Assembly (NCBI GenBank): GCA_001771505.1
Contig: MEUA01000005.1
Location: forward strand, 10,808 to 74,807
Length of the DNA: 64,000 nucleotides
Direction of reading: 5' to 3'
Source of the DNA: a candidate division WOR-1 bacterium RIFOXYB2_FULL_36_35
Lineage (GTDB): Bacteria > Margulisbacteria > WOR-1 > XYC2-FULL-46-14 > XYC2-FULL-37-10
Shown here: one piece after another, positions 1 to 61,467 of the stretch
How the letters are laid out: each line of letters opens with the position of its first letter
How positions within the stretch are numbered: position 1 is the first letter of the stretch
The notes under the pieces: generated by a model
Databases searched by the model: none
Told to the model about the DNA's origin: nothing
The model's input: only the letters and a program-made list of their open reading frames with translations
Made by a program: the position numbers and the translations under genes

Positions 1-1046
1 ACAAAGAAAAAGTAAAAGGAACACTGGTATAGACGGTTAATATCGTCCAAATCAATATACGAAAAACCCAAGCGGCAGAATAATATTTATGACCGAAAAC
101 AAGCAAAACTATTGATTCACTTAAAATCATCCCTCCAATTGCAATAGGAATTCCCAAAAATAAATTGAAATTATATATTGCCGAAACTAATCTCTTCATT
201 TTTTCCATGTTGTTATTATATAAACGCGAGAGAACGGGAAAAATTGATTTACCCAGAACGGTCGAAAAGAGAAGCAAAGCAAATATAATTTTATAGGCGG
301 CATTATACAACCCCACACTTTCCACATTACGCATTATTCCTAACATAACAGTGTCTATAGTAAAATATACTTGGAGTAAAATGTAAGAAATCCCGAGAGG
401 CGCCGCTTCAATAAAATATTGTTTCCATTTGTGAACGTTAATTTCATTAACCTTAAAAGGAATAAAACGCAAAAAGAGCGCCAGAATCAAAATCAAGGCA
501 ACAGTTATACTGATTACAAATTCAAGAAAAGGGACTTTTATAAGATCGTTCGCACTTTTTACAAATAAAACAATAAATAACATAAGCAACAATCTATTTA
601 TGATCTTCTCCAATCCAACACACTCAAACTTTTCAATGCCTTGAAAAATCCATTCGGGCGATATATTCTTTGAAATAATAAGCAAAAACGTCACTACAAA
701 CAGCACTTTCAATTCAAACGGCATGGGAAGCAGCAAAACAATAATTATTGACAACAAATAAACCACTATTCCCCAAGTAATTCTTAACAATGCTATATTT
801 ATAGACAAGTGTTCAATCTTTATTTTATCTTTGGCCGTTTCTCTCGTGCCATATGTTGAAAATCCAGCATCGACAATTAATAAAAGATATATAAATATAG
901 CTTGAACAAAGTTGAGTAGACCAAAGGCTTTGACCCCTAAAACTCGGGCCAAATATATTACAATGATCAAGCTAAGGACTCCACTTGCAAGTTCACTAAA
1001 AAACAACCAAAAAAAATTTCTAGTAATCTGTCTGGCTATTCCCATC
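1..1046 (-). CDS. Wzx-like polysaccharide/O-antigen flippase (Polysacc_synt-type multi-TM protein). 3' end runs off the window edge (partial)
   Basis: The reverse complement from 1046 translates MGIARQITRNFFWLFFSELASGVLSLIIVIYLARVLG..., a run of hydrophobic helices typical of the Wzx/MATE-like flippase family. The ORF track shows no competing ORFs between 1 and 1050, which fits one long frame leaving the window. Confidence 0.55.
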
Positions 1047-1052
1047 TTATAA

Positions 1053-1739
1053 TTAATTATCCTTTTTAAGCAAAAACAGGAATTGATTCCCAAACATTTC
1101 CTTGAAAAATCGCTTAAATATTTTATCCATTTTTAAATAATAGACCAGTTTATTTAATCCTTTAGGCAAACTTATAAAAACATCGTATTTTTCTATCTTA
1201 TATCCCGCACTAATTATCATCCTCACCGCACTATTAAAAGTAAAGAACCTGATATGCCCGTCATCTAATAATCCTGATTCTTCATAGTTAAATCTTCCAA
1301 GCAACAACTTAAACCTTATAGACCAATGAGCAATATTCGGAAGAGAGACTATTAAGAGCCCATCATCTTTAATATATTTATGAAGTTTTTTTAATATCTT
1401 AATGGGCTGAAAAAGATGTTCCAAAACATCCGCACAAACAATTACATCAAATTGTTTTTCAGAATAAGGCAAAACAATATCTTCTATATTTCCAATAATG
1501 ACATGATCAAGAACCTTTTTTGCGCTTTGTGCCGCAACATCAGATATCTCTATGCCAAAAACTTTGTTGTTGTTTTTCTTAAGTTCTGCGCCCAAATATC
1601 CTGTCGCGCAACCAACATCCAAAACAGTCTTCTCTTTCCCCACAAAATCAATAATAGATTGATGTACCCCTCCCGGGCATAAAAACAACTTATAATTATT
1701 CGCTTTACTTTTATAATACTCTTGAGCTTGCGCTACCAT
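1053..1739 (-). CDS. class I SAM-dependent methyltransferase
   Basis: Motif I VLDVGCATGYLG plus an acidic motif II, in the Methyltransf_11/12-like layout. Confidence 0.7.
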   Translation of the reverse strand: MVAQAQEYYKSKANNYKLFLCPGGVHQSIIDFVGKEKTVLDVGCATGYLGAELKKNNNKVFGIEISDVAAQSAKKVLDHVIIGNIEDIVLPYSEKQFDVIVCADVLEHLFQPIKILKKLHKYIKDDGLLIVSLPNIAHWSIRFKLLLGRFNYEESGLLDDGHIRFFTFNSAVRMIISAGYKIEKYDVFISLPKGLNKLVYYLKMDKIFKRFFKEMFGNQFLFLLKKDN

Positions 1740-1743
1740 TAAC

Positions 1744-2664
1744 TTACTCCCAATCCTTTTTCCTCGAAAACAAAGAAAAAATCATCTTATATAAAACAGC
1801 CATCATAAAAAAAGAAACTTCTCTGAAAAAAGAAAGAAGAAACCGCTGATACAGAGGCATTTTTAAATAATTAATCTGAAAATATCTTTCACTCTCCAAA
1901 TAGCTCTTTTTTCTTTTATGAAGCGGTATCAATGCGCTATCCTTTGTAACTTTGTGAAAAATCACGCTTTTTGGAACTACATATGTAGCATATTGATATT
2001 TTAATAATTTTTCTGCAATAATACACTCTTCCCAGCCTAAAAATGTGTTTTCATCAAACATTCCTATTTTTGCAAGAATATCTGAACTAAACAACATACA
2101 ACAACCCGGAATAGCATATACTTTAAAAGGCTTTTCTCCTTTTTGCAAAACAGGTTCTACCGCCATTTTAGTCTTTACAAAAATCTCCCTTAAAGGAGTT
2201 AAAAAAGCAATGTATGAAAAAAAATTAATCCTTTTTAAAAAATATCCCTGCCAATGAAGGCGTTTATTATCTTCTATTATTTTAGGGCCAACCAATGCAA
2301 CATTTGAATTATTAAAGACTTCCAGCAATAAAGGGAGAAAATCAGGACTAACAAGCGTATCATTATTTAAGGCTAATATATATTTACTTTTATATTTTGA
2401 CAGAGCAAACCTTATTCCTATATTATTCCCGCGGGCAAAACCTAAATTCTCTTTATTTTCAATAATATCAACCCTATCCTCAAATTCGCTGTTCTGTTTG
2501 AGCCATTCTTTTATTTTTAAGATTGAATCATTAAAAGAGCCATTATCCACTAATACTATTTTATAATCACTAAAGTCCATTTTAAAAAGCGATTCCATGC
2601 AATAAATAGTATCTTGGTACCCGTTATAATTTAATATAATTATAGAAATATCTGAACTATTCAT
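1744..2664 (-). CDS. family 2 glycosyltransferase (GT-A fold)
   Basis: N-terminal SIIILNYNGYQDTIYCMESL ... VLVDNGSFNDS, the typical GT2 start with a DxD-type region. Confidence 0.7.
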   Translation of the reverse strand: MNSSDISIIILNYNGYQDTIYCMESLFKMDFSDYKIVLVDNGSFNDSILKIKEWLKQNSEFEDRVDIIENKENLGFARGNNIGIRFALSKYKSKYILALNNDTLVSPDFLPLLLEVFNNSNVALVGPKIIEDNKRLHWQGYFLKRINFFSYIAFLTPLREIFVKTKMAVEPVLQKGEKPFKVYAIPGCCMLFSSDILAKIGMFDENTFLGWEECIIAEKLLKYQYATYVVPKSVIFHKVTKDSALIPLHKRKKSYLESERYFQINYLKMPLYQRFLLSFFREVSFFMMAVLYKMIFSLFSRKKDWE

Positions 2665-3796
2665 TTTTATTTTTCAATATACGCTGATAAGCCTTTAGTG
2701 TAGAGGCTGCCGCCTTATCCCACGTATAATTTTTGAGGATATGTTCTTTAAGCTTTGGGTTTAAGGGGGCATTATAAGCTTTTAAAACAGCATCTCTTAT
2801 GGAAGATATATCAGAAGGATCACAATAATAAGCCATATCAAGAAAATATTCTTTCGTGTATCCACGATTGGTTATTACAACATTGCAATCAGCCAAAGCT
2901 CCTTCCAAACAAGACAGACCGGTTGTTTCTCCCCAACTCGGCAAAACAATTGTTTTTGCTCCCCAATAAATTGAAACAAGTTCTTCCTGAGTAGTTTTAT
3001 CAAGCAAAAACATTTTCCCTTTATTTTGATCACACATCTGTTTTAATCTTCTGTAATAACCTATATGAGTATTGGCAACACTGCCAATCATAATCAAAGG
3101 GATTTCGGTATCTTGAATTGCTTTTATAAGGTCATACTGATTTTTTCTGACAATATAGTTAGCAACACACAGAATATAATCTTTTACGCCAAACTTTTCA
3201 ACAAAAGAATCATCTCTTTTTGTAAAAATAAGATCTACGGCATTAGGCACTATTTCAAAATCTTTTATCTCTTCATACTTTTCTTTGATTTTTTCAAGTT
3301 CCATATAAGAATTGGGTAAAATGATATCTGCTCCCATAATTACACTCTTTTGCTGCTCAATAAATCCCATCGTCAACTGTTTCCACATAGCTTTTAATTG
3401 TCTAAAATCCATTATTGTTCTATATATACATTTTATTTTTTCCCTATTATCTTTATTGAATCTTTTTAAAATAACTCCCTTGATTCCATATGTAGCCTTG
3501 GTATCAAGTTCATTATAATCAGAATAAATAGTAGAAAGAGCAATCGGCTTATTTTGCCTTCTCGCGTTAATATATTGAAGATAGGTTTCATGCACTCTGG
3601 TAACATTAAAAAGATGGACAAGATCATATTTATCAAGATTAGGTTCAAGATCAAGAGAAATATCGACAGAAAGCTCAAGCTTCTCCAAAAATTCTTTTGT
3701 CTTTTTCATTTGGATGGTATCTCCACCAGGCGCGGAAAAAGCATCAACTCGATTTTGCATTAAGACTTTCATTTTATCTCTAATCACTCCAAGCAT
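2657..3796 (-). CDS. GT4-type (GT-B fold) glycosyltransferase
   Basis: C-terminal LPSWGETTGLSCLEGALADCNVVITNRG, the E-x7-E signature of the GT1/GT4 superfamily. Confidence 0.7.
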   Translation of the reverse strand: MLGVIRDKMKVLMQNRVDAFSAPGGDTIQMKKTKEFLEKLELSVDISLDLEPNLDKYDLVHLFNVTRVHETYLQYINARRQNKPIALSTIYSDYNELDTKATYGIKGVILKRFNKDNREKIKCIYRTIMDFRQLKAMWKQLTMGFIEQQKSVIMGADIILPNSYMELEKIKEKYEEIKDFEIVPNAVDLIFTKRDDSFVEKFGVKDYILCVANYIVRKNQYDLIKAIQDTEIPLIMIGSVANTHIGYYRRLKQMCDQNKGKMFLLDKTTQEELVSIYWGAKTIVLPSWGETTGLSCLEGALADCNVVITNRGYTKEYFLDMAYYCDPSDISSIRDAVLKAYNAPLNPKLKEHILKNYTWDKAAASTLKAYQRILKNKNE

Positions 3797-4613
3797 GTAG
3801 CATGACAGGCTTCCCCCATTTTTCTTCTATCCCTTTTGTCAATATTTTATATCCAGGATTTATTTTCAGGAGAAAGGATGAAATCATCTCTGCATCTTCT
3901 TTTTTATGATAAGTTGTAATTGCTATTTTTGGTCTGTTTTTCTCTATTGTACGAACAGCCCCTTCAAGCATTTGAAGCTCAAACCCTTCAAGATCCGCTT
4001 TTAAATAATTTACATCAATCTCCTTTTCAAAAAACAGACTATCAATAGTAGAAATAGATATTCGATTTGATAAGTTATTTTTATTATCTTTTGACAAAGT
4101 TATAGATGAAAAAATCCCATTATTTGATATTACCCCTTCCCCTGTTTTATTAGACACAGCAACAGGCAAAAGAACAATATTGTCAATATTTTTAAAGCTC
4201 AATCTCATGGATTCAATAAATTCAGGTAATGGTTCAATCGCATAAACTCTTTTGCATCTGTCAGCTATCAACATGCCAAATAATCCTTCGGCAGCTCCAC
4301 AATCCACAACTATATCTTCCTTAGAAACCTTTGTTTCATCAACCTCATAATAATGCCAATCATTTGGATAAAACAGTTCAGCAATTACCTGATATAACAT
4401 TTTAAGGCTTGCGTTTTTAGGGTAATAAAAAGGTTTTTCAAAATTATTAAAATATATTTCAATGTCATTTTCTCTAATGTTTAAGCTTTTAATGACCTTT
4501 TTTGCTTTTCTCACATATGGCAGACCAAAGATTCTTTCAAGTAATGCAAAAAACGAAACTCCATTTTTGTTACCATCAAGCCACTGTTTTAAGATTGTAA
4601 AGCGTCCGAACAT
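3780..4613 (-). CDS. FkbM-family methyltransferase
   Basis: VVDCGAAEGLFGMLIADRCKRVYAIEPLPEF, the characteristic FkbM MTase core. It overlaps its neighbours (coupled translation). Confidence 0.6.
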   Translation of the reverse strand: MFGRFTILKQWLDGNKNGVSFFALLERIFGLPYVRKAKKVIKSLNIRENDIEIYFNNFEKPFYYPKNASLKMLYQVIAELFYPNDWHYYEVDETKVSKEDIVVDCGAAEGLFGMLIADRCKRVYAIEPLPEFIESMRLSFKNIDNIVLLPVAVSNKTGEGVISNNGIFSSITLSKDNKNNLSNRISISTIDSLFFEKEIDVNYLKADLEGFELQMLEGAVRTIEKNRPKIAITTYHKKEDAEMISSFLLKINPGYKILTKGIEEKWGKPVMLHAWSD

Positions 4614-5959
4614 AATATTTTATCTCCCAATGAGTCATGACGTTTAGTTTCTTTATAAATTTTACCAGAAAAATAATATAAAAAGATAAAGAAAAACATT
4701 CCATCAACAAAATAATTACCATACCTAATAAGCCTTAATAGAATCAGGACAAAAATACCATTATTGATGATTGACATGCGATTATAATAATCAAAATTAT
4801 TATCTGTTTTTTTGCTACTGTTTTTTGGAAAAATAAAAAATTTAATCAAAAAATAAAGAAGAATGATTACTCCAAAAAGCCCTGTTTCTGTTAATAACCT
4901 TAAAAACATTGAATTTGCATCATTTTTTGATACAAACAAGCCCCAGCCATGCACCAAAAAATCCCTATTATTTTTAAAAATCTCAGGGCCGATAAATTGC
5001 TCAACATATTTATCAAAAGCCTCAGGATAAGTGCCAAGTCCTGTGCCAAATAATGGAGTATTTTTTAATGACTCTATGGTAACTCCAAAATTTGCATACC
5101 AAATAAAGACACTTGCATCAACCAACATATTTGATGATTGCAATAATGAAGTTACTCCGTCAACCCTATTCTTAAAATCGGGAATTTTTGAATAAAAATT
5201 AGAAGCCAATATTGAAATTAAGATCAACGCTATAGGCAAATAAAAAATCCGTTTATTTTTCAAGCTAAAAAATCGATTTCTATATAAAATAAGAATCAAC
5301 GCAAAAAACAACCCCATATAACCAGTTGATGAAAATGTCAAGACAAAAGTCGACAAAATAATTATACTTCTAAAGAAATTCATATAAATTGAACTCCGTG
5401 TAAGAATATTATTCAACGCAACAAACATTGCAGGTGACAGTATAATTGACAAAACTGAAGGCTCTTGCATAATTGAATCTATTCTTACAAGACCGGACAA
5501 TCCATAAATAACGCGCTTCCCAGGGATAAAAAAACTCCAGTCATATCCATAACGGAATTTGATTAAAAAAGAAAATTCCTGAATCAGACCTAAAAGACAA
5601 ACAAAAAAAACCACATTTAAATATATACGAAAGAGATAATCAACATCATAATCATTTATTTTAATAAGCAGATAATAAGCTGATGCAGAAAAAAGGATTC
5701 CTAGCTGCTTCAAAACAAGAAGAACGGAAAAACCGCTAAAAGAAATATTAATAATAGAAAGAAAAAAAACAACAGAAAACAAAACAAAAAAAGTTGTATT
5801 GATAATTTCTACTCTATTCAAAAAAGCAATAACTAAAAAAACAAAAAATATTATATAAAATAGATAAAAGTCAAAAGCCCCTCGCAATAGAACAAAACTC
5901 CCCAAAAACATTGTCAAAACCATAATATAATTAACAATCACCTTAAATTCTAAACGCAC
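4589..5959 (-). CDS. O-antigen ligase / Wzy-like polymerase family integral membrane protein
   Basis: About 10-12 predicted TM helices and a large loop containing PLFGTGLGTYPEAF, which resembles the Wzy_C/O-antigen ligase loop motif. Confidence 0.5.
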   Translation of the reverse strand: MRLEFKVIVNYIMVLTMFLGSFVLLRGAFDFYLFYIIFFVFLVIAFLNRVEIINTTFFVLFSVVFFLSIINISFSGFSVLLVLKQLGILFSASAYYLLIKINDYDVDYLFRIYLNVVFFVCLLGLIQEFSFLIKFRYGYDWSFFIPGKRVIYGLSGLVRIDSIMQEPSVLSIILSPAMFVALNNILTRSSIYMNFFRSIIILSTFVLTFSSTGYMGLFFALILILYRNRFFSLKNKRIFYLPIALILISILASNFYSKIPDFKNRVDGVTSLLQSSNMLVDASVFIWYANFGVTIESLKNTPLFGTGLGTYPEAFDKYVEQFIGPEIFKNNRDFLVHGWGLFVSKNDANSMFLRLLTETGLFGVIILLYFLIKFFIFPKNSSKKTDNNFDYYNRMSIINNGIFVLILLRLIRYGNYFVDGMFFFIFLYYFSGKIYKETKRHDSLGDKILCSDALQS

Positions 5960-6777
5960 AAAATATCCTTCATTCTAGAAAAATACACTTTTAAATTCAG
6001 CAGTTTAAACTTAAATAATATTAACAAAGAATAAAACAATCTATGGCCTTTTTTTTTAAAAAATCGATATTTCTCCTGAATCTGCTTCCTCTCTTCTATT
6101 GCCTGCTTTTCCTTAGATTCAGACAATCTTTTTTTATGAAATCTAAACTTTGTTATCGGATACTTTAATCTCTTAGCTTTATATCTATCCCCTAATCTCA
6201 AAAAAAAGTCATAGTCTGCAGATAGTTTATATCTATCATCAAGATGTCCCACCTGATTAAAAACTTCTTTCCTAAAGAATGTTGTTGGATGAGGAATATA
6301 ACAATAGTTAGAAAATAATAGCATTTTCCAGTTATAGTTAGGGATTCTATAAATATTTTTTATTTTGGAATTTTCATCAATAGAACAAAAATCACCATAA
6401 ACCCAATACAACTCATTGTCTTTCATAAACTCATCAACAACTCTTTTCACTACATTATTATAAAAATACAAATCATCAGAATGCAAAGAGGCAATTATTT
6501 CACCTTTCGCAACACTTATTCCTTTATTTATTGCATCATATAATCCGTGATCCGGTTCACTTACCCAATAATCAATATTTTTTTCATATTTTTTGATTAT
6601 ATCTAATGTACTATCTGTTGATCCTCCATCAATTATGATATATTCGATATTTGGATAATTTTGATTTATAACGCTTTGTATGGTTTCCTCGAAATATTTT
6701 TCACCGTTTAAGACAACTGTGATAATGCTTACAAATGGAGGTTTGTCTATTCTTTTGTATTTTTTATTACTAAACAT
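5950..6777 (-). CDS. family 2 glycosyltransferase
   Basis: VSIITVVLNGEKYFEETIQSVINQNYPNIEYIIIDGGSTDST. Confidence 0.7.
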   Translation of the reverse strand: MFSNKKYKRIDKPPFVSIITVVLNGEKYFEETIQSVINQNYPNIEYIIIDGGSTDSTLDIIKKYEKNIDYWVSEPDHGLYDAINKGISVAKGEIIASLHSDDLYFYNNVVKRVVDEFMKDNELYWVYGDFCSIDENSKIKNIYRIPNYNWKMLLFSNYCYIPHPTTFFRKEVFNQVGHLDDRYKLSADYDFFLRLGDRYKAKRLKYPITKFRFHKKRLSESKEKQAIEERKQIQEKYRFFKKKGHRLFYSLLILFKFKLLNLKVYFSRMKDILCV

Positions 6778-7882
6778 TATATTTAGTTTTTAATATTAAT
6801 TTTATGTTTTCACAAATATATTTGATTTCAGATTTTTTCAGGCCTGGATAAGAAGGAAGATTTATTCCTCTCTGATATATTTTATGGGTAATCGGGGTAT
6901 GTGCCTTATCATACATTGGCATATCAGAAACAGGATAAAAATAAGGTCTACTATCTATCCCATTCTTTCTTAATTCCAAAACAAGCTTATCTCTTTGATC
7001 TTTAACAAAACCTTCTATTTCAAGAGAAATCATCCAATAAACATTTTTTGCCCACTTAGAAGTATAATTCAATTTTAATTTATCATGACCGGATAATTGT
7101 GCATGGTACAGTTTAAATATTTCTCTTTTGTATTCCAACAACTCATCAATCCTCTCAAGCTGTGCAAAACCTAATGCTGCCTGAAGATTGGTAATGCGAT
7201 AATTATATCCGATCATACAATGCCAATATCTCTGCTTTTTGCTCATTGCATGATCTCTTAAGTTTTTTGACTTTTCATAAAAAACACTATCATTAGTGGT
7301 AATCATGCCACCTTCACCTGAAGTTATTATTTTATTACCATAAAAACTAAATATCGCAGCATCTCCAATGGATCCAACCTTTTTAGTATTGATTTCGGCG
7401 CCATGCGCTTCAGCCGCATCCTCAATCACTAAAAGATCATATTTCTTGGCAATTTTTATAACCTCAGACATATTTGCAGGATGACCATACAAGTGAACAG
7501 GAATGATAGCCTTAGTCTTTTTGTTTATAGCCCTTGTTATGCTTTTTGGATCAATACATAAGTTATTTTCATCTATATCAACAGTTACAACTTTTGCGCC
7601 AGTATAAGTTATAGCATTGGCTGTAGCAATAAAGGTTAGATCAGGAATTATCACTTCATCCCCAGGTTTAATCCCGTAAGCTATCAATGATAAATGCAAT
7701 GCAGTTGTACCATTAGATACAGCTAAAGCATGCTTTACCCCACAAAACTCAGCAAAATTATTTTCAAATTTATCTATAAATTCGCCACTTGAGGATACCC
7801 ATCCTGATTTTATCGCTTTGTTAACATATTCAATTTCTTTTTTTGTAATCGAGGGTCTAGAAATTGGTATAAACTTTTCCAT
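6770..7882 (-). CDS. DegT/DnrJ/EryC1/StrS-family PLP-dependent sugar aminotransferase
   Basis: ALAVSNGTTALHLSL ... EDAAEAHGA ... GDAAIFSFYGNKIITSGEGG, the typical fold-type I sugar aminotransferase motifs. Confidence 0.8.
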   Translation of the reverse strand: MEKFIPISRPSITKKEIEYVNKAIKSGWVSSSGEFIDKFENNFAEFCGVKHALAVSNGTTALHLSLIAYGIKPGDEVIIPDLTFIATANAITYTGAKVVTVDIDENNLCIDPKSITRAINKKTKAIIPVHLYGHPANMSEVIKIAKKYDLLVIEDAAEAHGAEINTKKVGSIGDAAIFSFYGNKIITSGEGGMITTNDSVFYEKSKNLRDHAMSKKQRYWHCMIGYNYRITNLQAALGFAQLERIDELLEYKREIFKLYHAQLSGHDKLKLNYTSKWAKNVYWMISLEIEGFVKDQRDKLVLELRKNGIDSRPYFYPVSDMPMYDKAHTPITHKIYQRGINLPSYPGLKKSEIKYICENIKLILKTKYNV

Positions 7883-7934
7883 TATTCACCTCCAAACAAA
7901 CTTAAACCGACTAATTTTCGATAAACTCTGTTAT

Positions 7935-8918: not shown

Positions 8919-8945
8919 ATTAATCCCCTTTATAATATTTGCTAA

Positions 8946-52227: not shown

Positions 52228-53534
52228 AATTTTATTATATTTGCCCCAGATTTTTTTGAAACGCAGCTCATAGCATTGCGAGTATCAACTATCAAGACAG
52301 CTTTATTAAGTATCAATTTATAATCATAACTTGAATGAGCAGTTGCTATGACAACGCAATCATAATCCGAAATGGTTTTTCCATCCAGCTTTAAAGAAGA
52401 ATAATCTTTTCCGCAAATCTTAATTTTAGGAATAAAGGGGTCATTATAATCAACTTTTGCCCCTTTTTTATCAAGTATTTCTATGATTTTTAAAGAAGGC
52501 GACTCTCTGTAATCATCAATATCTTTTTTATAAGCAACACCCAAAACTAAAATTTTTGAGTTTTTTAAGCTCTTTTTGTCCTGATTTAGTCCATCTTGCA
52601 CAAGCTGCACAACATAATATGGCATTTGATCATTTAACTCACCTGCTAATTCGATGAAACGAGTATTCATATGATATTCTTTAGCTTTCCAAGAAAGATA
52701 AAACGGATCAAGCGGAATACAATGCCCTCCAAGACCTGGCCCGGGATAGAAAGGCATAAAACCATAAGGCTTTGTTTTGGCGGCATCTATTACTTCCCAT
52801 ATATCTATATCCATTTTTTTACAGAGAATAGCCAACTCATTAACTAATGCAATATTTACGCTTCTAAAAATATTTTCCAAAAGCTTTTCCATCTCCGCAA
52901 CTCTTGGAGTCGACACCAAATAAGTCTCCTTGATTATTTGAGAATAAAGTTTTCTTGTAAGCTCGCTGCATACAGGTGTCACTCCACCTATAACTTTGGT
53001 AATATTTTGGGTCCTAAATTTTTTATTGCCGGGATCTACTCTTTCAGGAGAAAAAGCCAAATAAAAATCTTTACCGACCTTCAATCCTGATTTCTCTAGC
53101 TTGGGAAGGACTACTTCTTCTGTTGTCCCAGGATAAGTTGTGCTTTCTAAAACCACAAGCTGGCCTTTTTTTAGTGTTTTTGAAATGTGAAAAGTCACTG
53201 ATTTAACATAAGATATATCCGGTTGTTTGTTCTTATCAAGGGGAGTAGGAACACAGATAATAATCGCATCAACAGCCTTAAGCTCGAAAAAATCATCTGT
53301 TATTTTTATTTTCTTATTTCTAACAGCTTTAAGCAAATCTTTTGAAGAGACATCAGAAATGTAGTTTTGCCCTCTATCAAGCATCTCCCTTCTTTTTGGG
53401 TTCTGCTCTATCCCAACAACACAAAAACCAGCTTTGCAAAACTCAACAGCTAAAGGAAGACCAACATAACCCAACCCAACAATGCCTATTTTTGCTTTTT
53501 TAGATCCTATTTTATCTAGTAAAACTTTATCCAT
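52224..53534 (-). CDS. UDP-N-acetyl-D-hexosamine 6-dehydrogenase (WbpA/WecC/Ugd-family nucleotide-sugar dehydrogenase)
   Basis: KIGIVGLGYVGLPLAVEF ... catalytic GGHCIPLDP (a Cys-containing motif). Confidence 0.8.
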   Translation of the reverse strand: MDKVLLDKIGSKKAKIGIVGLGYVGLPLAVEFCKAGFCVVGIEQNPKRREMLDRGQNYISDVSSKDLLKAVRNKKIKITDDFFELKAVDAIIICVPTPLDKNKQPDISYVKSVTFHISKTLKKGQLVVLESTTYPGTTEEVVLPKLEKSGLKVGKDFYLAFSPERVDPGNKKFRTQNITKVIGGVTPVCSELTRKLYSQIIKETYLVSTPRVAEMEKLLENIFRSVNIALVNELAILCKKMDIDIWEVIDAAKTKPYGFMPFYPGPGLGGHCIPLDPFYLSWKAKEYHMNTRFIELAGELNDQMPYYVVQLVQDGLNQDKKSLKNSKILVLGVAYKKDIDDYRESPSLKIIEILDKKGAKVDYNDPFIPKIKICGKDYSSLKLDGKTISDYDCVVIATAHSSYDYKLILNKAVLIVDTRNAMSCVSKKSGANIIKL

Positions 53535-53604
53535 TTTTAGATACTAAAAGATTTATTTATCGCCTATATATAACTTAAAATTAAGTATACCACTTACGAA
53601 AATT

Positions 53605-53641
53605 TTGTCTATAACTAATCAAGACCAGTCAACACCAGTCA
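53605..53641. repeat. ~37-nt direct repeat copy A, built from three 10-bp iterons (TGACTGGTNT-like)
   Basis: ttgtctataactaatcaagaccagtcaacaccagtca. Near-identical to 54759-54795. It overlaps the stop codon of the FAD oxidoreductase gene and sits ~70 nt upstream of the next gene start. Confidence 0.7.
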
Positions 53642-54748
53642 CAAGGAGATTATGCCGCCAACATGCTTCCCAATTGCCAAACAAGCTGTTAACCCTGGAG
53701 ATTCAATTCCTATCAAATTTACAAAGCCAGGAAACCCATTTTCAGTCTCCTCTTTTATCATAAAATCTCTAACCCCATCATTTAATCCTTGTAATTTTGG
53801 TCTCATTCCGGATGTATCCGGCATAAGTTGTTCCTCTCTTAAAAATGGCAAATAATGCTTTGCGGCTTTATAAAAAGCCTCTCTTTTACTGGAATCAACA
53901 TCATAATAAATATGATCAACATAAGTTGCATCAGGACCCAATTTTACACATCCTTCAAGATCAAGTGTCGCATGAACACCAAGCCCATATCCTTTTTCAT
54001 GAGGAACCGGATATACAAGATGATGCAGCATACCCGAGGCTCTAGATATCGAAAAATAGTCGCCTTTGCAATAATGGAGCCTGTACCCAAGCAAATCAAC
54101 ATCAAATCCCGTAATTTTAGCTATTTTATCCGAATAAAGACCCGCGGCATTCACAACTATTTCTGAAAGAATTTTTTCTCCTCTTAAAGTTTCAATAATA
54201 TATCCCTCAAAAGTTTTTACAATCTTTACAACCTCATTCTCAAAGGCAAACATTGTCCCATTATTTTGAGCTTCTTCATGCAAAATTTTCATTAAACCAT
54301 GAGAATCAATTATTCCAGTGGTAGAAGAAAATACGCCATTTAACGCGTAAACTTGGGGCTCTATCTTAAAGATTTCATCTTTGGTTAAAAGTGTAAGACC
54401 TGGAACACCAATTGAAGTTGATTTTTCATAAATAGATCTTATTTGTATTGCCTCTTGTTCATTTGTAGAAACTATAATTTTACCGCAATTTTTATGTCTA
54501 ATTCCTTTTAATTTACAAAACTCGTATAAGAGTTTATTGCCGAAAAGGCAAAGATTACTCTTTAAGGAATTTTTGGGATAATAAATACCAGCATGGATAA
54601 CCTCACTATTACGGCTGCTTATTTCCTGACCAAAATGCGCATTTTTTTCAAAAACAACAATATCTCCGCATATTTTCTCTGACAGTTCTCTTGCAATTGC
54701 AAGCCCAACAACTCCCGCACCAATTATTGAAACTTTAATTTTATCCAT
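53639..54748 (-). CDS. FAD-dependent oxidoreductase (DAO/LhgO-like)
   Basis: KVSIIGAGVVGLAIAREL (GxGxxG dinucleotide fold). Length 369 aa. Confidence 0.7.
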   Translation of the reverse strand: MDKIKVSIIGAGVVGLAIARELSEKICGDIVVFEKNAHFGQEISSRNSEVIHAGIYYPKNSLKSNLCLFGNKLLYEFCKLKGIRHKNCGKIIVSTNEQEAIQIRSIYEKSTSIGVPGLTLLTKDEIFKIEPQVYALNGVFSSTTGIIDSHGLMKILHEEAQNNGTMFAFENEVVKIVKTFEGYIIETLRGEKILSEIVVNAAGLYSDKIAKITGFDVDLLGYRLHYCKGDYFSISRASGMLHHLVYPVPHEKGYGLGVHATLDLEGCVKLGPDATYVDHIYYDVDSSKREAFYKAAKHYLPFLREEQLMPDTSGMRPKLQGLNDGVRDFMIKEETENGFPGFVNLIGIESPGLTACLAIGKHVGGIISL

Positions 54749-54803: not shown

Positions 54804-56369
54804 CTAATATTTCACTTTTTCCGTTACATTTATAAATTTATAAGGCCTAAAATAACTTGAAAAATAGCTTTTATCTTCCAATATCTGGAAATTACCTCCA
54901 AAATACCAATTAAATATTAGACGAAAAGTATTCACAGGACTTATGCTCGTATTTACAAACTCCACATCTGGCAAATAGTATGCATTTAAAATACGCATTT
55001 GACCTTTTAAGTTAGCATCGGAAAAGAGTTTTCCCATATGTTTTGGCTTATTTCTTATATCCGTAGGTTTGTTTTTTATATCCTGTTCAAATAAATAACC
55101 GGCGCCATGGTCACCCTGTATTATAATAATAGGTTTTACTTTTGACTTTGATAACAAAGAGTCAACCAACTGCATCACCTTTTTATTGATAAATCGAAGC
55201 TGAGGAACATATAAACTGTGATCAAACCACCCAGCAACCCCTTTAGGCAACTTTAACTTTGAACCATTCGAATTAAAAATAAAAGGAGGATGAGGGGATA
55301 ATATATGGGCAAATACAAATGTTGGATTTTTATTATTTGAAACCTCTTCTATCTCTTTAAACTGATCAATGACCCTACACCTTAAAACCGGAAAAGTAAT
55401 CTGTATGCTAAAAGGATGAAATATGCTACTTTCTAATAAAAGCATATTAAATTCATCAAGTAAGATCTTATCCATGAAAGAAGCTGTACTCGGAGTTGAA
55501 GAAGTAGCCTTCCACCACGAACCTATATTTATAATTTCATATCCGTTTTGTGCAAAAGTTTTTTCCACGACAGCATTTTTCATCATCTCTTGTAAATACG
55601 AAATATCATTAGATTCTTGCCCCATTATCCTTCCAACAAAATCCAAGTAAGTCATATTTAAAGACGAGGAAAGAGAGGCTAGAGTAAAAGCATAATTACT
55701 AAAACTTTTATCCGCGACATAAAAACCTCTTTTTTTTAAGGAGTTTGTAAAACTCGAATTATCATAACCAAATAAACCTTTTAAAACACTGTCAGACGAA
55801 TAAGCATCAAGAATTATATAATAAACATCTCTTTTCTTTGATTTTTCAGAAAAAATAAAACCCAAAGAATTCATCTTTTTAACACTTTTTAGGGCATTAA
55901 CATCAACCCTTTTATGAATATTATTTAATTTATAAGACAAAAAGTTAAACACTAATCCCAAAACCAAAACAAAAGCAACTACATTAAAAAAATAATTAAT
56001 CTTCTCCAATTGCTTATTTCTCCTAAAATAAATCATCAACGCAACAAACAAGCAAACTAGCACAAAAACCCAAAATGCCAATAAAAACCTTTCCCTAATA
56101 AATATATATTCAATTAAAAGATTTGAAAATAAAAAACAAAAACTCCCGTATAAAAAAATCCATAAAAAGAGAACAGAAGAAATTACAGAAGCTAGGTTTA
56201 AGTTCCTTAAAACAATAAATAAAACAACCCATAACAGAAAATAGATAAATATAAAAAATAATAATTTTGGAAAAACATCAAAAAAACCAAGTTCACCTAA
56301 ATTATTAAAAAACAAAAACAGAACAGGATATACGGCAAAAACAAAAGGATATATTATGATTTTTTTCAT
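54804..56369 (-). CDS. membrane-anchored sulfatase / alkaline-phosphatase-superfamily protein (LtaS / phosphoethanolamine- or phosphoglycerol-transferase-like)
   Basis: Five N-terminal TM helices. C-terminal domain with YYIILDAYSSD ... IIIIQGDHGAG (the GDHG motif of the sulfatase family). Confidence 0.6.
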   Translation of the reverse strand: MKKIIIYPFVFAVYPVLFLFFNNLGELGFFDVFPKLLFFIFIYFLLWVVLFIVLRNLNLASVISSVLFLWIFLYGSFCFLFSNLLIEYIFIRERFLLAFWVFVLVCLFVALMIYFRRNKQLEKINYFFNVVAFVLVLGLVFNFLSYKLNNIHKRVDVNALKSVKKMNSLGFIFSEKSKKRDVYYIILDAYSSDSVLKGLFGYDNSSFTNSLKKRGFYVADKSFSNYAFTLASLSSSLNMTYLDFVGRIMGQESNDISYLQEMMKNAVVEKTFAQNGYEIINIGSWWKATSSTPSTASFMDKILLDEFNMLLLESSIFHPFSIQITFPVLRCRVIDQFKEIEEVSNNKNPTFVFAHILSPHPPFIFNSNGSKLKLPKGVAGWFDHSLYVPQLRFINKKVMQLVDSLLSKSKVKPIIIIQGDHGAGYLFEQDIKNKPTDIRNKPKHMGKLFSDANLKGQMRILNAYYLPDVEFVNTSISPVNTFRLIFNWYFGGNFQILEDKSYFSSYFRPYKFINVTEKVKY

Positions 56370-57739
56370 TTTTTCGCTCTCATAAGATATAGTGTTCTAT
56401 GAGAACCGGGTATTTCAACCGTTTTCTCAGTAATAAATTTTTTTTCAAATGTCGCCTTAAAATTTTCAGAATTATAATGAGGAAATATATCCTTTCTTGA
56501 ATTGAAAAGTTTCTGTGCCATAGAATCCTCTTTTTCCACAAATTCTATTATAAGCCAATTACAAATTTTGCTAAAAAAATCGGCAATCTTTATAAAAGGG
56601 ATATTGCAACTTATCGCTAAATGATGAATCAACGCCAAAGCCATAACCAAATCAGCAGGTCCCCTCTTTATTAAAGAATCTCTCTCTAAATTTGCCCAAC
56701 CTAAAGAGGGAGTAGGATTTAACAAATCCAAAAACAATGGCAATATCTTTTCAAACTTAGATTTATTGTAAATATCTTCAATACAAAAAAAATCATTGTC
56801 AAAGGCTATTGTTTCTATGTTTTTACTGGCTGCTATTTCAGAAAAACCACCTGTATTACAACCCAAATCCCAAACATTAAAAGGCTTCAGAATATCAATA
56901 AAATCTAAAATTACACTTTTTTTAAATTCAAAAGAGTGTGGAGAATAATTATTACTAACATAGTAATCTTTCCAATGACTATGTTTTTTGTTTAACTTTA
57001 ATTTTTCAACAACCGATTGAAGATTATCTATAAGCGCGTAAAAATGGGTTTTACTAAAAAACACCTTCTTTGAAAATATTCTTCTCTCCTCATATTTTTT
57101 TTGAGCTTTTGAATGCAAATGAATATGAATAAAAATACCAGGATTCAACCAACTTGTCTTTGGCAAAACAGAGCTAACCAAATCAAGGGGAATCCCATTT
57201 ATAAAAACCTTAAAAAGCTGAGAAAGCCTATAATCCTTAAAAGCCATTAACACTAAAGGCCCTAAAAAATGTTCGCAAAACTGCTTATACGCAATCCAAG
57301 GTTCACCTTCATCGTATTTTTCAAAAGATAGAGTATCTATTAATTTAGGATTCCCCTTCACAAACTGAATATTAAAAGCGCTAGCATCTTTAAGCGTCAT
57401 ATCAAAATCAAGCGCTGTTTTTTGTAAATTTAAAGTGAGCAATGCAGCATCTTTTAGTTGTCCAAAACACCACTCATATGGATAAGAAATAAAAGAAATA
57501 CGTTCCGGTTTAATTATCTTATATGCTATATTTGAATTTTGAGCTTCAACTGAAACTTCTTTGTGAGAAATTAGAGTGTTTGCCTCCACAAGCTTATCAT
57601 AAAGCCCGCAGCGCATAAACATTTCATAATTATTTTTATAGGTAAAATTTATCTGTCTATAAATCTCTCCGTCTTTACTGAAAACAAAACCTGAAGGGTC
57701 TTTAAAGGAACCACCTATTAACGAACTATCACTTTGCAT
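56366..57739 (-). CDS. hypothetical 457-aa protein with C-terminal SAM-methyltransferase-like motif
   Basis: VWDLGCNTGGFSEIAASKN resembles MTase motif I. The N-terminal ~280 aa are unrecognised. Confidence 0.35.
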   Translation of the reverse strand: MQSDSSLIGGSFKDPSGFVFSKDGEIYRQINFTYKNNYEMFMRCGLYDKLVEANTLISHKEVSVEAQNSNIAYKIIKPERISFISYPYEWCFGQLKDAALLTLNLQKTALDFDMTLKDASAFNIQFVKGNPKLIDTLSFEKYDEGEPWIAYKQFCEHFLGPLVLMAFKDYRLSQLFKVFINGIPLDLVSSVLPKTSWLNPGIFIHIHLHSKAQKKYEERRIFSKKVFFSKTHFYALIDNLQSVVEKLKLNKKHSHWKDYYVSNNYSPHSFEFKKSVILDFIDILKPFNVWDLGCNTGGFSEIAASKNIETIAFDNDFFCIEDIYNKSKFEKILPLFLDLLNPTPSLGWANLERDSLIKRGPADLVMALALIHHLAISCNIPFIKIADFFSKICNWLIIEFVEKEDSMAQKLFNSRKDIFPHYNSENFKATFEKKFITEKTVEIPGSHRTLYLMRAKK

Positions 57740-58855: not shown

Positions 58856-58901
58856 AGCTAAACTCCTATTAAAGCAACAACCTTTCTATGTCTGATTCTC
58901 C

Positions 58902-60002
58902 TCATTTAACCAACGAGCTATACAATGTCAAAGTAAGTAAAATTGTATTAGCAAAACTGGCAAAGTCTGAAAAATAGAAGAAATTCCCCGGAACATTTAT
59001 AACATCCCCGCCTAAAACCTCCATATCTTTCTGTGTATCACCGTTATATATAACGTCACCGACGCTAACAGAATATTTTTCTGATCTGTCACTTATTTTT
59101 CTTGTCAGTTGAACAGAGTTAAGAAGAGCTTTATCTTTAGGGCCTCCAGCATAACTTATATAATCAGAAACACTTTTGCCAGGAACATACTCAAACCTAC
59201 CGCTTCTTGATACCTCCCCATATACATAAACAAAAACCTCTTTTCCTTCAAAGATAAGTTTGTCCTTGGATTCGTCTATCTTAGTCTGACTTATACGAAT
59301 ATTGTCGACACTTGGAACTTCAATAATATCCCCCGAACGAACATAAATATCTTTTGACAAATCTTTGCCTCGATAAGCATCAAAAAGATCGGCTTTTATA
59401 ACCTTGCTCTCACTTCCATCAAAAGACCTACGTTTTATATAAATATATCGATTAGACCCGCCACTGGCAATTCCACCTGCCTGAGCAATTACTTCTGAAA
59501 CTCTTAATCCGTCATAAATAGCCAAAGGTCCTGGATTTTTAACCATCCCAATCAAATAAATCTTAACTTTTTTGGGCTGAGTCAGCAATACAAAAATCTC
59601 AAATTTCTCCTGATACATGTTTTTTATAGTAGAATTTATCTTGTTTTTTGCTTGGCTTAAACTCAAACCGGAAAGATATATAGCTCCTATATTGGGGAAA
59701 AACACATTGCCGTCCGCACCGACAAAAAGATTATGGTTAATTGACAACTCTTCATCACCGACAATAATATGAACAGAAATATTATCCCCCGGCCCCAAAA
59801 TATAGGATTTGGCATCTATAGGACCCTCCATCGCCATATCTCCAAAACTTTTCGGAGCGGAATGTTCAGACGCCGGAACCTCTTGAATAGCAGGAACAGT
59901 CAATCCAAGAGAATTGATATCTACCGCGTAAACAAGTGTTATAGCGCCGAATATGCTAAAAAGCAAAAAAAGCGGAATTATTTTAAAAATCTTTTTCATC
60001 AA
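58902..60002 (-). CDS. Wza-like outer-membrane polysaccharide export protein (OPX; Poly_export + SLBB domains)
   Basis: N-terminal signal peptide. YILGPGDNISVHI (Poly_export motif). Repeated soluble-ligand-binding beta-grasp-like segments. Confidence 0.65.
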   Translation of the reverse strand: MMKKIFKIIPLFLLFSIFGAITLVYAVDINSLGLTVPAIQEVPASEHSAPKSFGDMAMEGPIDAKSYILGPGDNISVHIIVGDEELSINHNLFVGADGNVFFPNIGAIYLSGLSLSQAKNKINSTIKNMYQEKFEIFVLLTQPKKVKIYLIGMVKNPGPLAIYDGLRVSEVIAQAGGIASGGSNRYIYIKRRSFDGSESKVIKADLFDAYRGKDLSKDIYVRSGDIIEVPSVDNIRISQTKIDESKDKLIFEGKEVFVYVYGEVSRSGRFEYVPGKSVSDYISYAGGPKDKALLNSVQLTRKISDRSEKYSVSVGDVIYNGDTQKDMEVLGGDVINVPGNFFYFSDFASFANTILLTLTLYSSLVK

Positions 60003-60027
60003 AAAACACTTAGTTGTTATTATAACA

Positions 60028-61467
60028 TCAATTTAATAAAAACGCTTTTACAACTTCCCTGTCATCCAAATAAACTTTTTCCCCATTAAAATCCTGATAT
60101 TTTTCATGTCCGCGACCCGCGATAACAACAATATCTCCCTTATTTGCTAATTCCAAGGCTTTTTGGATGGCCATTTTTCTGTCAATAATAAAGTAATTAG
60201 CTTTTTGAAATTCGATATTAGAAATCGGACATTGGTCATTGATCATTCCGCCCTTTATGTCATTTATTATGTTTTGAGGATCTTCAGCATGAGGATCATC
60301 AGTTGTTACAAAAACAAGATCAGCTGCTTCCGAGGCTATTCTCCCCATAATAGGCCTTTTAGTTTTATCTCGATCCCCCGGACAACCAAAAACCAAAATC
60401 AACCGCCCCTCAACAAAAGGCTTAACAGTCTTTAAAAGTTTCTTAAGCGCATCAGGAGAATGAGCAAAATCCACAATAACATAAAAACCATTCTTACTCT
60501 TAAAAAGCTCGAAACGACCCGGGACTTTGGCTTTTTCCAAACCATGCTTAATAATTTTCGGACTTAAATTAAAATAGAGTCCACACTGATAAGCAGCTAA
60601 AATATTATATACATTAAATTCTCCTATCAAACTTGTTTTAATCTCTTCTGAATCTATTTTAACTTGCATAGAATTAATATTATCGACTTTAAAGTCTTTT
60701 AATGTTCCGTCTAAATCACTGTGTTTAGCCGATCTAAGTTCATGCCTCCCCTCTTTAAAACCATAAAAAACAACCTCGGTTTCAACAACCGAGGCTATAT
60801 CCTTTGAATAAGGGTCATCAACGTTTATTATCGCCGCGCCACTTGGCTTTAACATTTTAAAAAGCTTCTTCTTCTCCTCTAAATAGCTATTCATATCTTT
60901 GTGAAAATCAAGATGGTCATGTGTCAAATTAGTATATATCGCAACATCAAAATCACAACCGTAAACTCTATACTGGGCTAAAGCGTGAGAAGAGACCTCC
61001 ATTACAACGTGGGTTACCCCAGCTCGTAACATTTCTGCAAGAAGTTCCTGAAGCTCAAGAGATTCCGGAGTTGTAAGCTTTGAGTCAATCGACTTCCCGC
61101 CTATTTTATTTTCAACCGTCCCTATTAATCCTACCCTAAACCCGGCTGCAGAAAGAATTGATTCTATAAGATAAGCTGTAGTAGTTTTTCCATTAGTCCC
61201 TGTAATTCCTATGATTTTTAACTTTTTAGAAGGACAATCATAGAATCTGTTTGAAAGTTCCGCCAAAGCTTTTCGGCTGTTATCAACAATAACTTTCTTC
61301 ACACTTGGGGGAGCGTCAAAATCTTTTTCCGCGACAATAGTAGATGCCCCAGCTTTAATCGCATGAGCTATAAAATCGTGGCCATCAACCTTTAATCCGG
61401 GGATTGCAACAAAGAGATCTCCGCTTTTTACTTTGCGGGAATCGTAGGCGATATTGTTTGTCTTCAT
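60028..61467 (-). CDS. murE: Mur ligase, MurE-like (UDP-MurNAc-L-Ala-D-Glu : diamino-acid ligase)
   Basis: YDSRKVKSGDLFVAIPG ... IIGITGTNGKTTTAYL (P-loop) ... VVMEVSSH ... GCPGDRDKTKRP ... VTTDDPHAEDP (the DNPR-equivalent position reads DDPH). Confidence 0.65.
   Translation of the reverse strand: MKTNNIAYDSRKVKSGDLFVAIPGLKVDGHDFIAHAIKAGASTIVAEKDFDAPPSVKKVIVDNSRKALAELSNRFYDCPSKKLKIIGITGTNGKTTTAYLIESILSAAGFRVGLIGTVENKIGGKSIDSKLTTPESLELQELLAEMLRAGVTHVVMEVSSHALAQYRVYGCDFDVAIYTNLTHDHLDFHKDMNSYLEEKKKLFKMLKPSGAAIINVDDPYSKDIASVVETEVVFYGFKEGRHELRSAKHSDLDGTLKDFKVDNINSMQVKIDSEEIKTSLIGEFNVYNILAAYQCGLYFNLSPKIIKHGLEKAKVPGRFELFKSKNGFYVIVDFAHSPDALKKLLKTVKPFVEGRLILVFGCPGDRDKTKRPIMGRIASEAADLVFVTTDDPHAEDPQNIINDIKGGMINDQCPISNIEFQKANYFIIDRKMAIQKALELANKGDIVVIAGRGHEKYQDFNGEKVYLDDREVVKAFLLN

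Follow-up and report, generated by a model that had tools for sequence, protein, structure and literature searches.

The closest described counterparts of the locus treated here are the rfb loci of Leptospira, which are largely unidirectional. They span 3.8 to 121 kb, the median among pathogens being about 99.5 kb (PMC4758666), and they combine genes of the Wzy-dependent pathway with the transmembrane component of an ABC transporter and many S-adenosylmethionine (SAM) methyltransferases, bounded by MarR at the start and DASS at the end (PMC10958091). Several aminotransferases, nonulosonic-acid synthases and CMP-synthetases are found in a single Leptospira cluster (PMC3438082). Here we describe an array in a 64,000-nt stretch of DNA (the window; contig MEUA01000005.1) from a candidate division WOR-1 bacterium, which an earlier note on this DNA had read as a very large glycan locus with Wzx, Wzy-like, ABC exporter, Wzz and Wza genes. 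Pfam domains were found for each of these, and followed beyond the window the array comprises 68 genes in one direction over 72,126 bp, from murE (61467) to window coordinate -10658. The best explanation, which is likely to be correct, is a co-directional, mosaic surface-glycan region of 72 kb and 68 genes, most probably transcribed by read-through together with internal promoters and presumably specifying the assembly route set out below.

Extent and Coherence of the Array

Between window positions 1 and 61467 there are 57 minus-strand open reading frames (ORFs) of at least 90 amino acids (aa), and the ORF table and the public gene calls agree with the earlier note that every convincing gene from murE to the window start does so. 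Addition of a 71-aa ORF gives 58 in-window array genes, the number that had been estimated. All but three or four of the 57 ORFs have Pfam or NCBIfam matches, and nearly all belong to sugar-nucleotide, glycosyltransferase, methyltransferase or export families. Opposite-strand genes were looked for as a possible objection to the proposal and none was found in the array: every plus-strand ORF of at least 90 aa is nested inside a longer annotated minus-strand ORF, and the public gene calls (ENA, NCBI, JGI), which cover the array excluding window 11740-15842, contain no gene on the opposite strand, while in 11740-15842 the minus-strand ORFs all have strong Pfam matches. The Wzx-like flippase gene had been taken to run off the window, with the locus continuing beyond it, and longer contigs bear this out. 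They carry the full 475-aa gene (L001 10695-12122; L numbers denote public loci) followed by ten further co-directional genes, so that the array reaches 10.7 kb past the window start before it ends. Gene orientation is mixed in the flanking DNA of the same genome, and the one-direction run is therefore far beyond chance.

The genes are densely packed. More than half of the 67 junctions are overlaps (35, of which 13 by 4 nt and 6 by 8 nt), 23 are gaps of 0-20 nt, 7 are gaps of 21-60 nt and only two are longer, namely 61 nt (28703-28763) and 104 nt (53535-53638); re-deriving the counts by hand from public start codons gave identical totals. The 104-nt gap and the divergent region upstream of murE had been named as the only gaps of at least 100 nt. 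Both exist, but they are not the only ones between large ORFs, as a space of 222 nt (57740-57961) had gone unlisted; it is filled by the 71-aa ORF.

The window has a GC content of about 31% and a GC skew that is strongly negative on the plus strand throughout. GC is lower in the array (31.5%) than in the flanks (33-37.5%), and GC at third codon positions (GC3) falls from about 0.30 in the head to 0.18-0.26 in the middle and rises again to 0.26-0.32 in the tail. Paralogs within the array are all less than 38% identical to one another, so its size does not stem from recent duplication. A metagenome scan with Wza returned only four related loci, a number insufficient for charting how the locus varies, and the head and tail modules sit in different contexts in relatives. 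Composition and relatives together indicate that the array is a mosaic of modules. The features are collected in Table 1.

Table 1. Features of the array and its surroundings (window coordinates unless a public locus is named; negative coordinates lie before the window start; TM, transmembrane; GT, glycosyltransferase family)
Feature	Position	Strand	Evidence or content
murE, first gene of the run	60028..61467	-	NCBIfam NF001126, 566.7 bits vs cutoff 373; Pfam Mur_ligase N, M and C
Wza-type outer-membrane polysaccharide export protein (OPX)	58902..60002	-	Pfam Poly_export and two SLBB (PF02563 + SLBB)
Wzz-type co-polymerase, 297 aa	57962..58855	-	Pfam Wzz (PF02706) 53.6 bits and GNVR 41 bits, above cutoffs
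Small hydrophobic ORF, 71 aa	57729..57944	-	In public annotations; AGGAG 6 nt before ATG
457-aa protein, no Pfam or NCBIfam match	56366..57739	-	C-terminal motif VWDLGCNTGG of class-I SAM-methyltransferase type
521-aa membrane protein, sulfatase-fold	54804..56369	-	Five N-terminal TM helices and outward-facing alkaline-phosphatase/sulfatase-fold domain
DAO-family FAD oxidoreductase	53639..54748	-	Pfam DAO 184.9 bits; NCBIfam 240.7 bits vs cutoff 299
Largest intergenic gap, 104 nt	53535..53638	-	Repeat; best internal promoter-like site TAGACA-16 nt-TGgTATACT (53611-53584, TG extension)
WbpA/B/D/E-like four-gene block	49567..53534	-	NDP-sugar 6-dehydrogenase, GFO oxidoreductase, hexapeptide acetyltransferase, DegT aminotransferase
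Short DegT-like protein, two SDR dehydratase/epimerases (one with CBS domain), GT2	45555..49554	-	Pfam, NCBIfam
Second nonulosonic-acid module	37297..45568	-	Divergent NeuB-type synthase, methyltransferase, DUF354-like protein, CMP-transferase (CTP_transf_3)
Pseudaminic-acid module	28764..37266	-	PseB, PseC, 835-aa fusion, xylose-isomerase-like TIM-barrel, two GNAT, PIG-L deacetylase, PseI
ABC exporter, fused transmembrane and nucleotide-binding domains (ABCB/type IV half-transporter)	25843..27681	-	Pfam ABC_membrane and ABC_tran (PF00664 + PF00005)
KdsB-like cassette	19033..25853	-	HMGL-like aldolase (571 aa), LdpA-like 4Fe-4S protein, HAD phosphatase, HpaI-like class II aldolase
RmlD reductase, GT2, membrane-anchored GDSL/SGNH hydrolase, GT1, B12-binding radical SAM, HisH/HisF/WbuX	11049..19032	-	Pfam, NCBIfam
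Assembly block	1053..11014	-	Three GT1, two GT2, LegC-like DegT, two class-I methyltransferases, FkbM methyltransferase, Wzy_C protein
Wzy_C protein (PF04932)	4589-5959	-	38.3 bits vs cutoff 31.7; about 10 TM-like segments; no NCBIfam match
Wzx/MOP-family flippase, first 349 of 475 residues	1..1048	-	Pfam Polysacc_synt (PF01943), 132.8 bits vs cutoff 28.2
Radical SAM genes	13567-15051; L093 3072-5896, 7613-9034	array direction	One (L093 4424-5896): HpnJ model 401 bits, cutoff 577.6
Co-directional cluster on another contig	L103 1-11038	.	Two or three Glyco_transf_9 heptosyltransferases, DUF2079, GT4, UbiA, SDR, WbaP-like (Bac_transf), WecA-like (Glycos_transf_4)
Two GT2 genes, outside the array	61594..63222	+	Each followed by a REP-like hairpin (62275-62297; 63191-63222)
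Divergent intergenic region, 126 nt, murE / plus-strand GT2	61468..61593	.	Candidate first-promoter site; no confident site in promoter scan
DUF559 repeat copies flanking the 76-kb unit	L007 1-560 (~window 65065-65624); L095 13378-13938 (~window -10694 to -11254)	same orientation	96% identity
REP-like palindrome sites	62275-62297, 63191-63222; L093 13305-13327 (~window -10622)	.	Hairpin
REP-like palindrome, flank sites	L093 ~18272, 20428; L094 ~16796, 18218, 20491	.	Hairpin

Probable Organization of Transcription

Terminator-like sites occur at chance level in every segment scanned, the extension included (17 vs 11.1, 9 vs 8.4, 9 vs 8.8 and 8 vs 6.5), and between the genes the scan of window and extension found none with a long stem on the array strand. 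Strong internal terminators were checked for as a finding that would speak against a single unit, and no credible one was found. The only strong terminator-like site on the array strand (60770-60798, a 12-bp stem followed by TTTTTAT) lies inside the murE ORF and is probably fortuitous. The palindrome ACCCCGATTAnnnTAATCGGGGT, which resembles a repetitive extragenic palindromic (REP) element, occurs 7 times in the roughly 19 kb of flanking DNA, each time at the end of a gene, while the 72 kb of the array hold none inside and one copy in the last 37 nt; across the genome the palindrome probably serves as a bidirectional terminator or represents a REP element. As no convincing terminator interrupts the array, expression most likely proceeds by read-through across very long distances, probably with help from internal promoters.

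The candidate that stands out among such promoters on sequence grounds is the extended -10 element in the 104-nt gap. The gap also contains a repeat, as the earlier note had seen and as repeat scans agree. It is one copy of a 39-nt direct repeat, 90% identical, that brackets the DAO gene (53603-53641 and 54757-54795) in such a way that one copy ends 9 nt before the DAO ATG while the other starts on the DAO stop codon. The repeat holds TGACTGGT-nn-TGACTGGT and TAGACA, and was not found elsewhere in the 83-kb composite, nor on the genome's other contigs or in relatives; it could be a scar left by insertion of a cassette or a shared operator or promoter. Scans for tandem and long repeats gave nothing notable beyond it. 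No leader, JUMPstart/ops-like or riboswitch RNA was detected with Rfam at gathering thresholds, or at E <= 1 over the array head, and no tRNA was found.

It is conceivable that the array is a strict super-operon, in which one promoter, lying upstream of murE or wza, drives a single transcript of 68 genes, an arrangement that would require processive antitermination. The many overlapping junctions with no gap larger than 104 nt, the chance level of terminator-like sites with none of them intergenic, and the REP-like hairpin that is missing inside the array and present at its 3' end are all what such a unit would show. On the other hand, a promoter-like element with an extended -10 is found within the run and the 39-nt repeat lies on both sides of the DAO gene, Rfam detected no leader RNA, no NusG/RfaH paralog was found in the window or flanks, and GC3 and synteny describe a mosaic of modules that are separate in relatives. 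One transcript for the entire array is therefore considered rather unlikely, and read-through aided by internal promoters is preferred.

Proposed Assembly and Export of the Glycan

The array encodes about 16 glycosyltransferases and many methyltransferases, and its genes can be arranged into a route of the Wzx/Wzy type. The head provides murE, Wza, a kinase-less Wzz, a small membrane peptide, a methyltransferase-like protein and an EptA/LtaS-like membrane enzyme. Repeat units would be begun on undecaprenyl phosphate by WecA-like and WbaP-like transferases encoded elsewhere, built by the roughly 16 transferases and flipped by Wzx, after which the Wzy_C protein would polymerise or ligate them under the control of Wzz and the polymer would be exported through Wza. 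A second product, lipid-linked or containing a CMP-activated acid, may leave via the ABC exporter, and in a third route a GT2 enzyme resembling polyprenyl-phosphate-sugar synthases could act with a DUF2304 protein and a GT-C enzyme, a set commonly found for this purpose, to modify the glycan on the outward side of the membrane. Given the number of transferases, about 16, the array is likely to yield more than one product.

The earlier note found no obvious initiating phosphoglycosyltransferase in the window, and the extended array is likewise without one: Pfam detected neither Bac_transf (PF02397) nor Glycos_transf_4 (PF00953) among the 68 genes. WecA-like and WbaP-like genes are found side by side, near heptosyltransferases, on another contig of the same metagenome-assembled genome (MAG; METR01000046.1, L103), in a cluster that looks like a lipopolysaccharide-core locus and would supply the initiating transferases lacking in the array. 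In two other Saganbacteria, the group to which the host belongs, a WecA-type gene (PF00953) closes the homologous tail module, with glyQ and glyS behind it.

The full-length Wzx matches the NCBIfam flippase equivalogs weakly. The ABC exporter was described as MsbA/PglK-type, which holds for its architecture, but none of the equivalog cutoffs is reached (HepA family 426.6 of 725, MsbA 345.7 of 602 and PglK 259.7 of 1000 bits); its sequence matches in the PDB are ABCB1, Sav1866 and MsbA. It is the sole ABC protein of the array, in which no ABC-2 permease with a separate nucleotide-binding protein (Wzm/Wzt or KpsM/KpsT type) was found. The exporter gene overlaps the first gene of the aldolase/KdsB-like cassette by 11 nt and is therefore possibly linked to this module. 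The question raised earlier, whether two lipid-linked intermediates are flipped by different routes (Wzx and ABC), is a reasonable one.

It has to be considered whether the array is instead mainly a protein-glycosylation island that decorates flagellin, pilin or S-layer, with the Wzy_C protein acting as a PglL/PilO-type O-oligosaccharyltransferase. Pseudaminic and other nonulosonic acids are common on flagellins and S-layers (general background; PMC3438082), the Wzy_C family includes O-oligosaccharyltransferases, the tail contains a GT-C (PMT_2) enzyme and, in relatives, a gene for an SLH-domain protein lies just past the homologous tail. Against this, Wza and Wzz indicate a polymer that crosses the outer membrane, about 16 transferases and a Wzx flippase suit a lipid-linked repeat unit, and the array and flanks contain neither a Maf-type flagellin glycosyltransferase nor any flagellar genes. 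Protein glycosylation as the main role thus appears unlikely, and an exported surface polysaccharide remains the preferred interpretation.

Several points nevertheless weigh against the overall reading of the array. No bacterial tyrosine-kinase (BY-kinase) or low-molecular-weight (Wzb-type) phosphatase domain was detected by Pfam in any of the 68 array genes, and family searches did not identify PseG in the pseudaminic-acid module. Several pathway assignments, namely those of PseH, the second NeuB, the WbpB/D/E-like proteins and TIGR04326, rest on sub-threshold scores, and a Wzy_C domain cannot separate a polymerase from a WaaL ligase or the O-oligosaccharyltransferases just mentioned. A single super-operon is unproven, with a transcript structure that is deduced from sequence, and the sigma-70 and terminator scans are consensus-based and may not suit this phylum. 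The true sequence after the array end is ambiguous, as three assemblies diverge at a multi-copy DUF559 repeat, which leaves the array itself unaffected. Finally, the glycan itself is a prediction from its genes.

Genes at the Head of the Array

The first gene, described before as MurE-like, encodes a true MurE by NF001126. It is a housekeeping peptidoglycan ligase, not glycan-specific, that is probably co-transcribed with the array. The order murE-wza-wzz is shared with one relative, a marine Margulisiibacteriota contig (L018), and is not found in the closest Saganbacteria loci; as murE lies beside the array in L018 and in none of the eight other closest relatives, it is not counted as a glycan gene. 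Wza matches the NCBIfam EpsE and pepcterm_export models weakly and below their cutoffs. Wzz has two TM-like segments, one at each end, and its only domains are Wzz and GNVR, with no tyrosine-kinase domain. In the 457-aa protein the methyltransferase motif was spotted by eye, and a methyltransferase function is presumed from it.

The 521-aa protein belongs to a family with more than 11,900 cluster representatives at 50% identity. Pfam Sulfatase is matched by 19 of 30 aligned family members, while the protein itself scores 18.4 bits against a cutoff of 25, and the family profile has a weak match to sulfatases (E = 0.025). Sequence searches of the PDB with this protein and with the LIC12162-family protein described below gave no usable match. 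The AlphaFold model of the 521-aa protein (predicted local distance difference test, pLDDT, 83; predicted template-modelling score, pTM, 0.85) retrieved MCR-1, EptA, EptC, LtaS, PbgA and sulfatases as top Foldseek hits in the PDB (probability 1.0, TM-score 0.33-0.54), and residues D188, S232, S235, S236, H355, H360 and D420 are invariant in the family. As modelled, the protein is a membrane-anchored member of the alkaline-phosphatase superfamily with EptA/MCR-1/LtaS architecture, which probably adds a phospho-substituent to the glycan, and its family is a large, apparently uncurated group of envelope-modifying enzymes. The DAO-family protein that follows is closest to L-2-hydroxyglutarate or glycerol-3-phosphate oxidase; in one relative (L108) its homolog is located upstream of wza instead.

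Precursor-Sugar and Tailoring Modules

Between the head and the assembly block the array carries a series of sugar-nucleotide modules. By gene content the WbpA/B/D/E-like block resembles the route to UDP-2,3-diacetamido-2,3-dideoxy-hexuronic acid, its NDP-sugar dehydrogenase scoring 449 bits against an NCBIfam cutoff of 189.8 and its other members falling below equivalog cutoffs. The second nonulosonic-acid module also contains a GFO oxidoreductase, a DegT protein, a further methyltransferase and a LIC12162-family transferase (TIGR04331, 525.7 bits vs cutoff 225). Its NeuB reaches 278 bits with Pfam and 335 bits with the NCBIfam model NeuB_NnaB, whose cutoff is 399.65.

The pseudaminic-acid module, which is flanked by gaps of 30 and 61 nt, passes the NCBIfam equivalog cutoffs for PseB (537.3 vs 407.75), PseC (494.2 vs 423.5) and PseI (492.7 vs 340.25), while PseH, at 44 bits, falls short of its cutoff of 93.1. 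Its 835-aa fusion protein joins an N-terminal PFTS-motif region of 590 aa (36.7 bits with the PFTS model, cutoff 100) to a cytidylyltransferase domain (CTP_transf_3, 115 bits) and has no PseF equivalog match.

A third CMP-activated 2-keto-3-deoxy acid module is proposed from the genes of the KdsB-like cassette. Besides the enzymes in Table 1 its tightly coupled genes encode a KdsB-like CMP-transferase (subfamily PRK13368, 256.5 bits vs cutoff 255) and a 610-aa TIGR04326-like putative transferase (58.7 vs 250); the HpaI-like aldolase, at 151.8 bits, is below cutoff, and LdpA is a cyanobacterial clock-associated family. Together with the ABC exporter the cassette (19033-27681) may represent a pathway to an undescribed CMP-activated 2-keto-3-deoxy acid, and we know of no characterised equivalent. 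Each of the CMP-sugar modules closes with its own putative transferase of LIC12162, TIGR04326 or PFTS type.

In the region next to the cassette RmlD (230.1 bits vs 224.05) and WbuX (274.9 vs 203.2) pass their cutoffs, and Pfam finds His_biosynth, GATase and Radical_SAM with B12-binding domains; the HisH/HisF/WbuX amidotransferase trio is predicted to take part in acetamidino formation. The LegC-like DegT aminotransferase of the assembly block scores 381.8 bits against a LegC family cutoff of 420. Past the window start come the remainder of Wzx and then, in order, two B12-radical-SAM genes with a methyltransferase gene behind them, one radical-SAM gene, the third B12-radical-SAM gene and a pair of GT2 genes, one of which resembles polyprenyl-phosphate-sugar synthases; DUF2304, the PMT_2 (GT-C) enzyme and a last GT2 complete the array. 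A homolog search with a truncated PMT_2 fragment returned nothing at E <= 1e-20. In all, the array encodes four B12-binding radical SAM enzymes and one further radical SAM enzyme, with mutual identities of 23-31%. HpnJ, the model that one of them matches, is hopanoid-associated, and the Saganbacteria relatives L101 and L102 also carry B12-radical-SAM genes in the homologous tail.

It is tempting to combine these observations into one picture, in which one or two giant terminator-less units, read with the help of an undescribed antitermination system, would specify a polymer with three CMP-activated ketodeoxy acids that is C-methylated by the four B12-radical-SAM enzymes; one of the acids would be undescribed, built by the cassette with HpaI-like and HMGL-like aldolases, LdpA-like and KdsB-like proteins, and exported by the coupled ABC exporter. 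Taken as a whole this combination is improbable.

Assembly Integrity and Flanking Repeats

Over their overlaps with the window, twelve public loci drawn from several independent assemblies (ENA, JGI, NCBI) agree with it at 100% identity, which excludes that the window itself is a chimeric assembly, as the earlier note had thought worth checking. ENA contigs of 99,993, 129,902 and 143,147 bp lead from the array into flanking DNA, and the unit from one flanking repeat to the other is represented by two JGI contigs of about 76 kb. It is very improbable that the long run is an assembly artefact, a chimera of organisms or a collapse of strains. A contig of low coverage (L008, 2.85x) does leave the window sequence at 53050, and the assemblies do fork at the DUF559 repeats on either side of the unit. 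The forks all lie outside the array, however, and beyond its junction L008 has a GC content of 42.8%, foreign to this genome, so that L008 is itself the chimera. The L008 junction, which leads from 53050 into thioredoxin and tRNA-synthetase genes, was also considered as an array-less strain variant and rejected, given the coverage and GC content.

A repeat of about 560 bp with a 90-aa DUF559 gene lies some 70 nt past the last array gene, and the second flanking copy is found about 3.8 kb upstream of murE; additional copies, shortened by a 100-bp deletion, exist elsewhere (L093, L094). Most assemblies break at this repeat, and three long contigs give three different continuations. The repeats could permit recombination or loss of the whole glycan unit. 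One of the three continuations (L095 14035-20723) carries a second polysaccharide cluster that is led by Wzz-like and 867-aa Wza-like genes, contains also a small HTH protein, two epimerases and a DegT gene, and is not placeable relative to the main array.

Outside the array the end of the window holds two plus-strand ORFs (61594-63196) and one further minus-strand ORF at the window edge. In one public contig (L012 3454-3489) an indel of about 35 nt relative to window 61660-61667 lies inside a plus-strand GT2 gene and truncates it (117 aa called), which may represent population-level variation in a glycosyltransferase.

Host Organism and Significance

Exact sequence matches come from metagenomes of the Rifle (Colorado) aquifer and from MAG GCA_001771395.1, and two proteins of this genome are named as candidate division WOR-1 bacterium RIFOXYA2_FULL_36_21, which NCBI taxonomy places in Candidatus Saganbacteria within the Cyanobacteriota/Melainabacteria group. 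The taxonomic comparison of MurE that the earlier note advised places the host with Saganbacteria and Margulisiibacteriota, which supply the nearest MurE proteins among species representatives (43-62% identity, the 62% match being a Candidatus Saganbacteria). The suggestion of a spirochaete host with a Leptospira-like rfb locus, which AT-richness, length, one-directional genes and matches to families named for Leptospira O-antigen genes (LIC12162, TIGR04326, LA_3751/2, PFTS motif) had made attractive, can be set aside in view of the exact protein matches and the MAG accession, of a spirochaete appearing only far down the MurE list at 42% identity, and of the absence of the Leptospira boundary genes MarR and DASS (PMC10958091). 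The array and the cluster with heptosyltransferase, WecA and WbaP genes indicate that this uncultured bacterium has a diderm envelope.

Searches of the literature turned up no account of this locus or of surface polysaccharides in Saganbacteria, and the main genomic study of the group mentions neither polysaccharides nor the outer membrane (PMC6349859). Saganbacteria are uncultured and their cell envelope is undescribed, and the array indicates an elaborate surface glycan that is acidic, heavily methylated and amidinated. About 72 kb spent on one surface structure would be a large investment, pointing to strong selection at the cell surface, in which phage, grazing or the need to attach to sediment may be involved. 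As a compact natural collection of sugar-tailoring enzymes of the nonulosonic-acid and B12-radical-SAM kinds the array could be mined, and it has value for the envelope biology of the cyanobacterial sister lineages.

Comparison with Known Systems

With the Pse pathway of Campylobacter and Helicobacter the array shares PseB, PseC and PseI above their cutoffs, and a PseH-like GNAT and a cytidylyltransferase domain within the module. It differs in that PseG is not identified, the PseF-like domain is fused to the PFTS-motif region, and the context is polysaccharide export rather than flagellar. A modified pseudaminic derivative is suggested by the extra genes of the module, which encode a PIG-L deacetylase, a second GNAT and a TIM-barrel protein. 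The exporter resembles PglK, MsbA and HepA in being a fused type IV half-transporter, with cyanobacterial HepA as best family followed by MsbA, but falls under every equivalog cutoff and is coupled to the aldolase/KdsB-like cassette instead of lipid A or N-glycan genes.

Like proteobacterial O-antigen and group-1 capsule loci, the array has Wza, a polysaccharide co-polymerase, Wzx and Wzy_C, a variable centre of low GC flanked by ends that are better conserved, and genes in one direction. In contrast to proteobacterial Wzx/Wzy loci it is 3-5 times larger, lacks WbaP or WecA within the locus and has no detected JUMPstart/ops element, and unlike in group-1 capsule loci the co-polymerase is without a BY-kinase domain and neither a Wzb phosphatase nor a separate kinase is encoded.

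The likeness to the Leptospira rfb loci lies in the great length, in the combination of Wzy-pathway genes with an ABC transporter and many methyltransferases, and in the nonulosonic-acid gene sets; the LIC12162 family is shared above cutoff, with weak matches to TIGR04326 and LA_3751. Since Leptospira already offers examples of glycan loci that are very long and unidirectional, no current concept is overturned. The array differs from the rfb loci in that it belongs to a different phylum, has no MarR start or DASS end and instead finishes with a GT2 gene and then the DUF559 repeat, has a dTDP-rhamnose set cut to RmlD, is led by Wza and Wzz with the initiating transferase unlinked, and carries B12-radical-SAM enzymes together with the KdsB-like aldolase cassette.

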